Shown here: positions 1,638 through 57,138 of the stretch, one piece after another
Position numbering within the stretch: the first letter of the stretch is position 1
How the letters are laid out: each line of letters starts with the position of its first letter
Assembly: GCA_963750165.1 (NCBI GenBank)
Contig: CAVVPN010000004.1
Span: forward strand, 1,024,001 to 1,088,000
From: an uncultured Gemmataceae bacterium
GTDB taxonomy: Bacteria > Planctomycetota > Planctomycetia > Gemmatales > Gemmataceae
Length of the DNA: 64,000 nt
Direction of reading: 5' to 3'
Position numbers and translations under genes: made by a program
Notes under the pieces: model-generated
The model's database searches: none
Told to the model about the DNA's origin: nothing
The model's input: the letters and a program-made list of their open reading frames with translations, nothing else

Positions 1638-1760
1638 GAGCGGTTCGCAAGCGCGTGGACCACAAACCGTGGCACGGCTCTCCAGAGCCGTGGTGGAAAC
1701 CGCACGGCTCTGGAGAGCCGTGCCACGTCGTGTGCGCCTGCCCTTCGTGAACCGCGCTAA
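1635..1760. mobile_element. MITE-like element copy A2 (REP double-hairpin cargo), inverted relative to A1
   Basis: CTGGAGCGGTTCGC...CACGGCTCTCCAGAGCCGTG...CACGGCTCTGGAGAGCCGTG...GTGAACCGCGCTAA; colinear with reverse complement of 7191..7318. Confidence 0.7.
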
Positions 1761-7190: not shown

Positions 7191-7318
7191 TTAGCGCGGT
7201 TCACACTTGGTTTGCGCACAGCCTGTGGGACGGCTCTCCAGAGCCGTCCTTGTCTCGGAGACGGCTCTGGAGAGCCGTCTTACGGGGCGTGATCCACGCG
7301 GCTGTGAACTGCTCCAGA
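7191..7318. mobile_element. MITE-like element copy B with REP double-hairpin cargo
   Basis: TTAGCGCGGTTCAC...GACGGCTCTCCAGAGCCGTC...GACGGCTCTGGAGAGCCGTC...GTGAACTGCTCCAG; imperfect terminal inverted repeats. Confidence 0.7.
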
Positions 7319-10535: not shown

Positions 10536-11374
10536 TGACCCTGGAAACGCTCACCATCGTCGGCGTCGGCCTGATCGGCGGCTCGGTGGGGCTGGCGGCC
10601 CGCCAGCGCCGCGTCGCCCGCCGCGTCATCGGCCTGGGCCTGCGCCGCGACGACCTCGAACGCGCCCGCCGGCAGGGCGTCATCGACGAGGTGTCGCTGG
10701 ACCTGAGCGCCGCTGTCCGCGCCGCCGACCTGGTGATCTTCTGCACCCCCGTCGATCAGCTGGTGGATCAGATCGTGGCCGCGGCGCCGCACTGCCCCGC
10801 GCACGCCGTGCTGACCGACGTGGGCAGCACCAAGGCGGTGATCGTGCGCGGCGTCGAGGAGCGGCTGCCGGCGGCGGCCTTCGTCGGCAGTCATCCGCTG
10901 GCCGGCTCCGAGAAGCAGGGGGCTGACCACGCGACGCCGCACCTGTTCTCCAACCGCGTCACGGTCGTGACACCGACGCCGCGAACCCCGGATGCGGCGC
11001 TGGAGCGTGTCAGCGCCTTCTGGGCGGCGCTGGGGGCGCGTGTGCAGCGGCTCAGTCCCGAGGACCACGACGAGGCGCTGGCACTGACGAGCCATCTGCC
11101 GCACCTGCTGGCGTCAGCGCTGGCGGGCCTGCTACCGCCGCCCCTTCACGATCTGACCGCGCTGGGCTTCCGCGACACGACGCGCATCGCCGCCGGCGAC
11201 CCGGCGCTGTGGACCGCCATTTTCACGCAGAACCGGCCCGCGCTGCTGCGGGCGCTGGCGCTGTTGCGCGACCGCCTGGACGGCATCGAGGTCGCTCTGC
11301 AGAAGAACCATCCGCCCGTTGTCCATGCCTGGCTGGAGCAAGCCAAGAAGGTGCGAGATGCTCTGGGAAGTTGA
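10535..11374 (+). CDS. tyrA: Prephenate dehydrogenase
   Basis: IVGVGLIGGS, TDVGSTK, GSHPLAGSEK, HD...TSHLPH, GFRDTTRIA; TGATG coupling with upstream gene. Confidence 0.93.
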   Translation: MTLETLTIVGVGLIGGSVGLAARQRRVARRVIGLGLRRDDLERARRQGVIDEVSLDLSAAVRAADLVIFCTPVDQLVDQIVAAAPHCPAHAVLTDVGSTKAVIVRGVEERLPAAAFVGSHPLAGSEKQGADHATPHLFSNRVTVVTPTPRTPDAALERVSAFWAALGARVQRLSPEDHDEALALTSHLPHLLASALAGLLPPPLHDLTALGFRDTTRIAAGDPALWTAIFTQNRPALLRALALLRDRLDGIEVALQKNHPPVVHAWLEQAKKVRDALGS

Positions 11375-14357
11375 GATCGAGCAGAAGGGCGGCGCCGACG
11401 CTGAGGCCGCTCGTGTTCGCGCCGAGGTGGCGCTGCTGGCGGCCGACCCCGCGGCGGCGCACTTCGCGGTGCGCGCCGCCCGCGGCTACCTGCTGGAGGG
11501 ACTGCTGCAGCGTGACGACGCGGAGCGGCTGTTGCAGGAATTGCTGGTCGATCCGCTGGTGGAGACCGGCCGCCTCCTGGGCCGCGATGAGCCGCCGCGG
11601 TCGGGGCAGAAGACGGTGCTGCTCAAGCCCGGCGTGATGGACCCGGCAGCGCAGAGCGTGCTGGCCGCGGCCGTGGACCTTGGCGTTCACCTGGAGGCCG
11701 TGCGCACCTTCCGCCGCTACTTCGTCGAGGGGCCGCACTCAGCGGATTTGCTGCGACGTGTGTTGGCCAACGACGCCATCGAGCAGGTGATTGACAGCCC
11801 GCTGTCACCGGAGCACCTGGCGCTGGGCCAGACGTACCGCTTCCAGAAAATCGCCGTGCCGCTGCGCGACCTCGACGACGCGGCGCTGCAAAAGCTCAGC
11901 CGTGACAGCCTGCTGTCACTCGACCTGGCCGAGATGCGGGCGATCCAGCAGCACTTCCGCGAACTGCAGCGCGACCCGACGGACGTGGAACTGGAGACGC
12001 TGGCGCAAACGTGGTCGGAGCACTGCTCGCACAAGACGCTCAAGGGCACCATTGACTTCAACGGCCGGCTCATCAAGAACCTGCTCAAGGAGACGATTTT
12101 CGGTGCGACCCAGGAAATCCGCCGCCGGCTGGGCACGGACGACTGGTGCGTCAGCGTCTTCGAGGACAACGCCGGCGTCGTGCGCTTCGACGAGCGGCAC
12201 AACGTCTGTTTCAAGGTAGAAACACATAATCACCCGTCGGCGATTGAGCCGTACGGCGGCGCCAACACGGGGCTGGGCGGCGTCATCCGCGACCCGCTCG
12301 GCACCGGCCTGGGCGCGAAGCCGGTGTGCAACACGGACGTGTTCTGCTTCGCGCCGCCAGAACGTGGGGTGGCTCGTGGGACGGCTCGTGGGACGGCTCG
12401 TGGGACGGCTCTCCAGAGCCGTCTGCCCGGAGACGGCTCTGGAGAGCCGTCCCACGAGCCGTCCTACGAGCCGTCCCACGAGCCGTCCTGCGAGCCACTG
12501 CTGCCGGGAGTGCTGCACCCGCAAAAGGTGATGCGCGGCGTCGTCGCCGGGGTGCGCGACTACGGCAACCGCATGGGCATTCCGACGGTCAACGGCGCCG
12601 TCTGCTTCGACGAGCGCTACCTGGGCAACCCGTTGGTCTACTGCGGCACCGTCGGCGTGTTGCCGGTGGACCGCTGCCAGAAGGCGGCGCAGCCGGGCGA
12701 CCTGATTGTGGCGGTCGGCGGCCGCACCGGGCGCGACGGCATCCACGGGGCGACGTTTTCCTCAGTCGAGCTGACCTCGGAGTCGGAGAAGGTCAGCGGC
12801 GGGGCGGTGCAGATCGGCAACGCGATCACCGAGAAAAAGCTGCTCGACGTGCTGCTGCAGGCGCGCGACCGCGGGCTGTATCACGCCATCACGGACTGCG
12901 GCGCCGGCGGCTTCAGCAGCGCGGTTGGCGAGATGGGCGAGAAGCTCGGGGCGGTCGTGCATCTGGAGAAGGCGCCGCTGAAGTACGAGGGGCTGTCGTA
13001 CACGGAAATCTGGATCAGCGAGGCGCAGGAGCGCATGATCCTGGCGGTGCCGCCGGGAGACTGGGAAGCGCTGCGGGCGCTGTGCGCCAGCGAGGACGTG
13101 GAGGCGGTCGCCATCGGCAGCTTTGAGGCGACGGGCCGGTTGCAGCTGTTCTACCAGGGCGAGCCGGTCGCGAATCTGGACATGCACTTCCTGCACGGCG
13201 GCCGGCCGGAGGTGGTGCGCCGCGCCACCTGGACTGCGCCGCCCGCTGCCGCGATACCGACGCCGAAATCGAGCAACTGCACCGAGGATTTGCTGAAGAT
13301 TCTCGGCGCGTACAACGTCTGCAGCAAGGAATGGATCATCCGCCAGTACGACCACGAGGTGCAGGGCGGCACGGTGCTGCGGCCGCTGGTCGGCGCGCAA
13401 GACGACGGCCCCGGCGACGCGGCGGTGCTGACGCCGGTGCTCGGCTCATGGGTGGGGCTGGCGGTCGGCTGCGGCATCAACCCGCGCTACGGCGACCGGG
13501 ACCCGTACGCGATGGCCGCCGCGGTCATTGATGAGGCGGTGCGCAACGTGGTGGCGGTCGGCGCGGACCCGGCGCGGATTGCACTGCTGGACAATTTCTG
13601 CTGGGGCAACACCAACCGGCCGGAGGTATTGGGCTCACTGGTGCGGGCGGCGGAGGCGTGCCGCGACGTGGCGCTGGCCTACGGCATGCCGTTCATCAGC
13701 GGCAAGGACAGCCTGAACAACGAATTCCACGCCGCGGGCCGGCACATCGTCATTCCGCCGACGCTGCTCATCAGCGCCCTGGGCCGCGTGCCGGACGTGC
13801 GCCGCTGCGTCAGCATGGACCTGAAGGAACCCGGCAACGCCCTGCTGCTGCTCGGCGTGACGCGCGACGAACTGGGCGGCTCGCACTATCACCTGATCCA
13901 CGGCCACGAGGGCGGACGGGTGCCGCAGGTGGATGTGCAGCTGGCGCCGCGGATTTTCCGCGGATTGCATCAGGCGCTGCAGCGCGGCCTGGTGCGGGCG
14001 TGCCACGATTTAAGCGAGGGCGGATTGGCGGTGGCGGTCGCGGAGATGGCGTTCGCCGGCGGCGTCGGCGCGGACGTGACCGGGCTGCGCGAACCAGCGC
14101 TGCATGGGCAGGCGGCGCCGGAACTGGCGGACGAGGTGCTGCTGTTCTCCGAGTCGGCGACGCGGTTCGTGCTGGAGGTGCGGCTGGCGGACGTGGCGGC
14201 GCTGGCGGCGTGCTTTGCCGCGGCAGTGCCGCTGTGGCGGATCGGGCAGACGGTCAAGGAGCCGCGGCTGCGGATCGCGGGCGGCGGCGGCGAGTGGCTG
14301 GTGTGGGCGCAACTGGCGGATTTGAAGGAGGCGTGGCAGAAGCCGCTGCGGTGGTGA
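11358..14357 (+). CDS. purL: Phosphoribosylformylglycinamidine synthase subunit PurL (PurS-like N-terminus)
   Basis: AQTWSEHCSHK, ETHNHPSAIEPYGGA, TGRDGIHGA, DCGAGG, SEAQERM, SGKDSL, HDLSEGG. Confidence 0.96.
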   Translation: MLWEVEIEQKGGADAEAARVRAEVALLAADPAAAHFAVRAARGYLLEGLLQRDDAERLLQELLVDPLVETGRLLGRDEPPRSGQKTVLLKPGVMDPAAQSVLAAAVDLGVHLEAVRTFRRYFVEGPHSADLLRRVLANDAIEQVIDSPLSPEHLALGQTYRFQKIAVPLRDLDDAALQKLSRDSLLSLDLAEMRAIQQHFRELQRDPTDVELETLAQTWSEHCSHKTLKGTIDFNGRLIKNLLKETIFGATQEIRRRLGTDDWCVSVFEDNAGVVRFDERHNVCFKVETHNHPSAIEPYGGANTGLGGVIRDPLGTGLGAKPVCNTDVFCFAPPERGVARGTARGTARGTALQSRLPGDGSGEPSHEPSYEPSHEPSCEPLLPGVLHPQKVMRGVVAGVRDYGNRMGIPTVNGAVCFDERYLGNPLVYCGTVGVLPVDRCQKAAQPGDLIVAVGGRTGRDGIHGATFSSVELTSESEKVSGGAVQIGNAITEKKLLDVLLQARDRGLYHAITDCGAGGFSSAVGEMGEKLGAVVHLEKAPLKYEGLSYTEIWISEAQERMILAVPPGDWEALRALCASEDVEAVAIGSFEATGRLQLFYQGEPVANLDMHFLHGGRPEVVRRATWTAPPAAAIPTPKSSNCTEDLLKILGAYNVCSKEWIIRQYDHEVQGGTVLRPLVGAQDDGPGDAAVLTPVLGSWVGLAVGCGINPRYGDRDPYAMAAAVIDEAVRNVVAVGADPARIALLDNFCWGNTNRPEVLGSLVRAAEACRDVALAYGMPFISGKDSLNNEFHAAGRHIVIPPTLLISALGRVPDVRRCVSMDLKEPGNALLLLGVTRDELGGSHYHLIHGHEGGRVPQVDVQLAPRIFRGLHQALQRGLVRACHDLSEGGLAVAVAEMAFAGGVGADVTGLREPALHGQAAPELADEVLLFSESATRFVLEVRLADVAALAACFAAAVPLWRIGQTVKEPRLRIAGGGGEWLVWAQLADLKEAWQKPLRW
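12369..12498. repeat. 130-bp palindromic REP-derived insertion inside purL, reading frame preserved
   Basis: (GGCTCGTGGGAC)x3-GGCTCTCCAGAGCCGTCT / AGACGGCTCTGGAGAGCC-(GTCCCACGAGCC)x4; same core as at 1673 and 7229. Confidence 0.9.
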
Positions 14358-35703: not shown

Positions 35704-39701
<3,998 letters not shown>

Positions 39702-56113: not shown

Positions 56114-57028
56114 ATGGATGAGGCACTGGCCGAATTCCTCCGCCACCTGGCTCTGGAAAAAAATGCCTCGCCGAACACCGTCAAGTCCTATCGCGAGGAC
56201 CTGACGCAGGCGCTGGGCTTTTTCCGCACCCGGTTGGGGGACCGGTCGGCGGCCGTGTCGGCGCTGACGACCCGGCTGCTGCGCGCCTACACCGTCTGGC
56301 TGCACGAACAGGGCTACGCCAAAACGACCATCGCCCGCCGCATTGCCTCAGTGCGGGCGTGGTGCCGGTTCCTGTGCCGGCAGGGCGTGCTCAGCGCCAA
56401 CCCCGCCGACGGCCTGCGCGGCCCGCGTCAGGACAAGAAACTGCCGCACTTCCTCGCCCAGGGGGAGATTACTCGCCTCCTCGAAGCGCCTGGCAGTGCG
56501 ACACCGCTGGCCCTGCGCGACCGGGCCTGGCTGGAGACGTTGTACTCCGCCGGGCTGCGCGTCAGTGAGCTGACGGGCCTGAACCTGGCCGACCTGGACC
56601 TGGACGCCAGCCTGACGACGGTGCGCGGCAAGGGCCGGCGTGAACGGCTGGCCATCCTGGGCCCGAACGCCGTGCAGGCGCTGCGGGACTGGCTGGCGGT
56701 GCGCGGCCAGGTGGGCGTGCGACCCGACGGCTTCCGGCCGCGCGGGGCACAGGATGCGGTGTTCCTGAACAAGAACGGCACCCGGTTGACGGCGCGGAGC
56801 GTCGGCCGGCTATTAGAGAAGTACCTCGCCCAGGTAGGGCTGGACCCGCGCACCAGTCCGCACACGCTGCGGCACAGTTTCGCGACGCATCTGCTCGATA
56901 ACGGCGCGGACATCCGCAGTGTGCAGGAATTGCTCGGCCATCGCAGCCTGGGCACCACGCAAATTTACACTCATGTGACCACGCAGCGGTTGCGCGATCA
57001 CTACCAGAAGGCTCATCCACGCGCCTGA
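56114..57028 (+). CDS. xerC: Tyrosine recombinase XerC
   Basis: SPNTVKSYREDL, LYSAGLRVSEL, GKGRRER, SPHTLRHSFATHLL, QELLGH, TTQIYTHV. Confidence 0.9.
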   Translation: MDEALAEFLRHLALEKNASPNTVKSYREDLTQALGFFRTRLGDRSAAVSALTTRLLRAYTVWLHEQGYAKTTIARRIASVRAWCRFLCRQGVLSANPADGLRGPRQDKKLPHFLAQGEITRLLEAPGSATPLALRDRAWLETLYSAGLRVSELTGLNLADLDLDASLTTVRGKGRRERLAILGPNAVQALRDWLAVRGQVGVRPDGFRPRGAQDAVFLNKNGTRLTARSVGRLLEKYLAQVGLDPRTSPHTLRHSFATHLLDNGADIRSVQELLGHRSLGTTQIYTHVTTQRLRDHYQKAHPRA

Positions 57029-57138
57029 GTTATTAGTCATGAGTCATGAGTCATTAGTCATTAGTTGGCCAAAGTAATTGTAGGTTCTCGGACCCGGTTC
57101 AAGCCAACTAATGACTAATGACTAATGACTAATGACTC
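57027..57138. repeat. Inverted heptamer arrays (TTAGTCA)n / (TGACTAA)n
   Basis: GAGTTATTAGTCATGAGTCATGAGTCATTAGTCATTAGTTGGC...GCCAACTAATGACTAATGACTAATGACTAATGACTC. Confidence 0.9.

Follow-up and report, generated by a model that had tools for sequence, protein, structure and literature searches.

A palindromic insert in purL of an uncultured Gemmataceae bacterium reads as an in-frame GTAG-type REP dimer with mirrored 12-bp arrays

How a long palindrome came to lie inside a gene of purine biosynthesis, and how the gene has borne it, is the question raised by purL of an uncultured Gemmataceae bacterium. The locus was studied within a 64-kb window (the whole stretch of DNA analyzed, G000:C4:1024001-1088000) of a 9.6-Mb genome in 12 contigs. 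The family is probably Gemmataceae on homology as well, since the PurL of a genome in this family is almost identical to a homologue carrying that name. An earlier note had described the palindrome at 12369-12498 of this window with the purL frame intact; both statements were borne out by sequence inspection and ORF translation, the frame (11358-14357, plus strand) being open straight through the repeat. The insert is real and in frame. The protein scored 594.5 bits against TIGR01736 (over the cut-off of 525.75) and 578 against NF002290 (under its cut-off of 648), and its predicted model has a fold matching PurL structures; its N-terminus is presumably PurS-like and followed by a linker, going by the names of homologues. 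The anatomy of the locus is:

11358..14357 (+): purL, FGAM synthetase of 999 aa (TIGR01736) with no glutaminase domain; sole copy found in the genome
12360..12365 (+): host codons Glu335-Arg336; the nearest PurLs have Glu/Gln-Arg here, and the Arg codon overlaps the first unit
12363..12410 (+): left array of four 12-bp half-REP units (foot and 5' stem; TRF and anatomy), encoding RGVA and three RGTA, with two adjacent changes in the outermost unit
12400..12423 (+): left REP, a GTGG foot and 20-nt hairpin
12424..12431 (no strand): REP dimer spacer of 8 nt, unique to the purL copy within the genome
12432..12455 (-): right REP, inverted, with its foot outside
12445..12492 (+): right array of four 12-bp units, the reverse complement of the left unit, encoding EPSH, EPSY, EPSH, and EPSC
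12492..12498 (+): host codons Glu379-Pro380; the GAGCC of the REP is repeated 12 nt away, with 8-bp pairing to 12369-12376
1668..1727 (no strand): non-coding REP dimer of the same family with a variant stem, within a longer MITE-like repeat
7225..7279 (no strand): non-coding REP dimer of the same family, within a longer MITE-like repeat

Two 12-bp arrays were identified by TRF at 12363-12411 and 12444-12496, together with a 24-bp period. The dimer in purL measures 58 nt (12399-12456) and has three extra units on either side; it overlaps host codons (net +45 nt), giving a net gain of 117 nt (45 + 6 x 12) that supports the proposed growth in frame-neutral 12-bp steps. The original count of three left and four right units gave way to four and four, since a fourth, degenerate left unit begins at 12363 and in this register all 62 positions of 12363-12492 are paired, 57 of them by Watson-Crick and five by G-U pairs. 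The ends first proposed pair over 8 bp only, with one right unit looped out at a cost of about 16-20 kcal/mol. The predicted long hairpin was confirmed computationally as a single fold of -146.8 kcal/mol (z = -18) that none of 200 shuffles equaled in stability, and the palindromy could be recovered from the protein alone (0/60 shuffles as good for this PurL). That the units "stay complementary" is true but automatic, because each is half of an inverted repeat; the informative fact is the identical junction in both arms rather than their complementarity.

The REP core noticed in MITE-like copies was indeed present in purL, with the same family at 1668..1727 and 7225..7279. Its 18-nt core recurred genome-wide in 335 hairpins grouped in 172 clusters (one in a reversed-genome control), each REP consisting of a foot (GTAG or GTGG) and, after it, a short stem-loop, as in GTAG-type REPs. 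The clusters were mostly feet-outside dimers with subfamily spacers (120 of the 172 comprising two hairpins), single REPs were double-footed, and six of the 172 lay inside reading frames, giving the many, mostly extragenic copies expected of the class. The exact footed pattern was found 254 times in this genome; of 251 other genomes of the family, 10 had it in 1-39 copies, and the controls had none. Four Y1-transposase matches were identified in the genome and only one, a RAYT-like gene at C11:2305466-2306299, was flanked by this REP; it is bordered by REPs to either side and has HUH and Tyr motifs, a Pfam score just under the cut-off (20.9 vs 23), and three in-frame REPs of its own upstream of the HUH motif (L041:964-1803, G000:C11). 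Among the eight homologous loci examined, five were flanked by their own GTAGGACGG-type variants, two by other footed hairpins, and one by none. On these sequence features, the insert is a GTAG-type REP dimer linked through flanking copies to a RAYT, and the dimer was likely put into purL by this REP-associated tyrosine transposase.

The insertion site was compared with related PurLs, where a short loop had been expected and was found (42-43 residues vs 82 here). Of 29 loci, four of them unscored, 24 of the 25 scored relatives had a 42-residue segment and one had 40, while the three nearest PurLs (84-85% identical) had 43, with Glu/Gln-Arg at its start and Glu-Pro, Gln-Pro, or Glu-Ser at its end. 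Residues G337-C378 (42 residues) stand in for three, a gain of 39 over the nearest PurLs and of 40 over the usual 42; the "about 43 aa" of the earlier note thus shrinks to 39 relative to the three nearest PurLs, its Glu-Arg and Glu-Pro ends being host codons. The PurLs of Thermus and Thermotoga have just a few residues at the equivalent position. In the predicted model, the loop lies between a strand (321-331) and a helix (388-406) with pLDDT below 50 at 338-377, and the insert is predicted to be disordered; low pLDDT is to be expected of unaligned sequence. The suggested placement in a tolerated surface loop agrees with both the alignment and this model, and stands as a prediction.

Long versions of the loop were found elsewhere, as 9 of the 119 scored proteins among the top 120 matches (a list biased by the query) had 45-79 residues here, with unrelated sequences and in four other parts of the tree. 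When their inserts were tested for palindromy from the protein, the best two were matched by 2/60 and 4/60 shuffles and the rest were not significant. Five PurLs (P0068, P0114, P0104, P0018, and P0002) have 58-79-residue versions of the segment; two of these show a seven-residue periodicity suggestive of heptamer repeats, and in one an inverted repeat could encode the two ends. A family survey gave PurL matches in 234 of 252 genomes, and no other loop insert was seen by eye among 150 of the 247 rows of that survey. Eleven other family genomes had more than one PurL match, with a normal loop in 10 (where the multiple matches were frameshifts, contig breaks, or a weak second match) and an unreadable one in G124. 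Protein searches with the insert alone and with residues 326-392 each returned nothing at E <= 10, a weak test for low-complexity peptides, and a match of the insert in G008 was rejected as it lay off-frame over glutamate synthase without a REP. No listed sequencing run reached a share above 0.08 and none of RNA was listed; four runs examined contained only the purL of other organisms, some joining across the loop with short sequence. By alignment, the PurL loop appears permissive yet is filled rarely, and the locus marks it as tolerating 40 extra residues.

How the dimer grew is suggested by its junctions. The dimer would have landed just before the host Glu-Pro codons, where a host GAGCC matches the GAGCC of the REP at a distance of 12 nt and could have seeded duplication of the right arm by strand slippage. 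The right array, followed by AGCCAC, has the order H-Y-H-C, which would fit a 12-bp and then a 24-bp duplication, and the 24-bp TRF period fits such a second, double slippage step. At period 12 the left flank matches by just 1 bp, yet the left end shows the junction in mirror image and is perfectly complementary to the host flank over 8 bp, and we therefore infer that the right arm served as template for the left array on at least one occasion, presumably through a template switch on the hairpin. Two studies (PMC5941160, PMC8604942) support such switching at inverted repeats, both in bacteria and in the coding DNA of yeast; they describe arm homogenization and multi-nucleotide changes, including in coding DNA, as proposed here, and the cases summarized there are substitutions and spacer inversions in short repeats, in contrast to a tandem array copied across a REP dimer. 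Not every step was a copy of one arm from the other, as the foot of the left units is GTGG throughout and that of the right units varies, and later steps may have been independent in each arm. The two-base change that gives the left end its complementarity to the host flank can also be read as two transitions. The term "self-expanding" is not upheld, since slippage and template switching would suffice with no new machinery. The best explanation is probably an in-frame GTAG REP dimer that the RAYT likely placed in purL and that likely lengthened through slippage with copying between the arms; its predicted translation product is a disordered and likely neutral segment.

The same REP insertion may instead have acquired its two arrays separately, by independent slippage or the joining of half-REPs by the transposase where it cleaves, and with no copying between arms, which we consider unlikely. 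Uniform left and variable right units would be consistent with separate origins, as would a one-sided 13-bp arm duplication in the non-coding copy C4:584117 and 12-mer arrays without a REP in other organisms that have three vs four units in near-identical loci. Nevertheless, the identical mirror junction in both arms and the 1-bp microhomology of the left flank at period 12 argue for copying, the 13-bp case uses a different junction, and 12-bp half units were present in one of the 172 clusters. Tandem 12-mers at four genome and eight metagenome loci were rejected as relatives and are simple repeats, with the REP core in the flanks of none of the 12. One pair of near-identical loci (L049:1501-1545 and L051:1501-1521) differs by a single 12-bp EPSH unit near the gene start, with no REP core nearby. 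Scans of the genome and metagenome collections revealed no mirrored 12-bp half-REP arrays.

A bolder, speculative extension joins three ideas, a host-seeded 12-bp hairpin that amplifies itself, a loop that recurs as a safe harbor, and a G-U hairpin kept as a control of purine synthesis, and is very doubtful in this combined form. If it were true, one DNA unit would write two tetrapeptide repeats, the basic RGTA and the acidic EPSH, by arms that copy each other, and the PurL loop would be a safe harbor for palindromic repeats across the family.

The remaining REPs inside genes indicate what the reading frame admits. The six in-frame clusters were in purL, a D-Ala-D-Ala ligase-like gene, a FAD/Fe-S oxidoreductase, a methyltransferase, the RAYT, and an unnamed ORF that was left out of the homologue comparison. 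The D-Ala-D-Ala ligase-like gene, which lies downstream of a lysine-aminomutase-like gene, has five REP hairpins in four 30-nt units (L037:1719-1850; G000:C3:3541217-3541347) within an already variable loop, where other long inserts are present in three of nine homologues. In both the oxidoreductase and the methyltransferase, one REP stands in for a stretch of near-equal length, and the transposase REPs add about 50 residues. The periods of REP arrays within genes (12, 30, and 30) were all multiples of three (3/3) vs 0/11 outside genes (13, 31, 32, 38, 94, or 112; Fisher p = 0.003, or about 0.012 on distinct periods, with non-independent rows), and a three-copy non-coding cluster at C3:1048553 (spacings 31 and 30) was below the array threshold and uncounted. 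As a guard against circularity, copies with differently framed coding flanks were sought and no out-of-frame copy inside a gene was found, the two candidates both being intergenic. Among 23 clusters sampled from five relatives, 2 lay in open coding-like frames and none had 12-bp arrays (30 of 57 matches examined). Open coding-like frames containing the REP of purL were noted in two other genomes of the family, at L146:1480-1560 (G051) and on L152 (G052). The genome-wide period pattern suggests that selection would merely remove changes that are not multiples of three, and in the proposed growth of the purL insert it would act as a filter only.

It is very doubtful that the dimer is real while its 12-bp arrays, or their number, are a long-read consensus artifact over the hairpin. 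The assembly is rich in indels, with 10 shifts in seven of about 68 tested genes (one gene listed twice) over about 80 kb, or about one per 8 kb, and the unit number was read from the assembly alone, such that both this number and the unit variants may be off. Against an artifact, the 120 two-hairpin clusters of the same assembly lack such arrays, the differences between units are patterned and include the natural GTAG/GTGG variant of the family, and array periods follow coding status. A long gene region containing a ClpB-like ATPase (L036:900-4000; G000:C3:1776400-1779500) has an in-frame REP dimer and at least two frameshifts.

Selection of the hairpin as an RNA element (a pause, RNase III site, or decay switch) tuning PurL output would account for the very stable fold and for all five mismatches of the 62-pair register being G-U on the mRNA strand. 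On the coding strand every one of the five is a C-to-T or A-to-G change, which matches a known strand bias, and two pairs of them are adjacent; the deviations are compatible with strand bias and kept RNA pairing alike; the insert occurs in one lineage only and has no compensatory change, and such a function is most improbable.

That purL is dead or relaxed in a pathway no longer needed, the insert having accumulated there, is the least credible reading, since a purQ frameshift near codon 24 (L080:1370-2142, G000:C11) and a purF match slightly under its cut-off (332.9 vs 350) stand against purM and purD genes that are whole and over cut-off, a purL frame open over 3 kb with dN/dS of about 0.3 on a short branch, and a background indel rate that accounts for purQ. 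The earlier note had named an intact second purL elsewhere as a sign of a dead copy; the single purL of the genome keeps its motifs. Three of 280 otherwise invariant columns were changed in this PurL (relatives 0-10), one of which, a Pro-to-Leu change at 382, adjoins the insert. Its branch length was 0.28 (median 0.4), with dN of 0.18 and dS of 0.58 to the nearest sampled genome. Given the background indel rate, the purQ frameshift is probably, and most simply, an assembly error. From its sequence, the enzyme is likely active, and the REP dimer with its arrays is most likely a tolerated passenger that is likely neutral.

Rickettsia palindromic elements (RPEs) measure 105-146 bp and enter many genes as whole units. 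As with the RPEs described, the purL insert is a palindrome encoding an extra peptide in frame in a housekeeping protein and has a similar total length, and in-frame insertion at a surface loop is predicted here from the alignment and the model. In contrast to the RPEs, the mobile unit is a REP of 24-60 nt, and the 130-nt form, a single local outgrowth, occurs once in the genome (other copies mostly 20-65 nt) rather than being repeated as a unit. The earlier proposal of a planctomycete element analogous to that of Rickettsia is replaced by a GTAG-type REP dimer, a class already in print in PVC proteins including an O. terrae PurL. Intragenic GTAG REPs and dimers, most numerous in Opitutus terrae, are described in one report (Di Nocera, De Gregorio, Rocco 2013, PMC3733652) with in-frame inserts spanning 20-30 aa and clusters spanning 43-82 aa in many PVC-superphylum proteins; two in-frame dimers in the O. 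terrae phosphoribosylformylglycinamidine synthase Oter_3711 appear in Additional file 3. Those elements share with the purL insert the GT[AG]G-footed hairpins, feet-outside dimers, link to a RAYT, and in-frame coding, and differ in REP sequence and host. The O. terrae PurL is the 1438-aa form vs 999 aa here, and the two are likened as proteins rather than site by site. Mirrored half-REP tandem units were found neither in the passages of that report that were covered nor in its Additional file 3 (parts 2-3 covered by term search only).

In-frame REPs inside transposase genes are described for TnpA_REP subclass 2.4 (sections of Quentin et al. 2018, PMC6006769), which resembles the RAYT of this genome in its double-foot REPs and their in-frame position; here they are upstream of HUH instead of separating the HuH motif from the Y motif. 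Repeats fused into reading frames have been reviewed (parts of PMC3184786) and multicopy repeats within Geobacter genes noted (parts of PMC2700814). Repeats inside genes, even inside PurL, are already published and only the mirrored growth looks new; no mirrored half-REP expansion was found in the literature searched, outside which lay subscription papers and bioRxiv supplements. As the general phenomenon is known, the gain is in mechanistic detail and not a new system: one locus and its genome may record how selfish palindromes become protein by insertion, host-seeded slippage, arm copying, and a frame filter, and the locus would be a natural substrate for template switching on tandem arrays.

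Two further repeats were observed in the window. A hairpin at 57026-57137 with 7-bp tandem arms (TGAGTCA and ACTAATG types), located between a stop codon and what is likely a ribosome-binding site, suggests a second palindromic family growing by tandem units. About eleven 126-bp tandem repeats at 37497-38982 likely encode a 42-residue TPR array.
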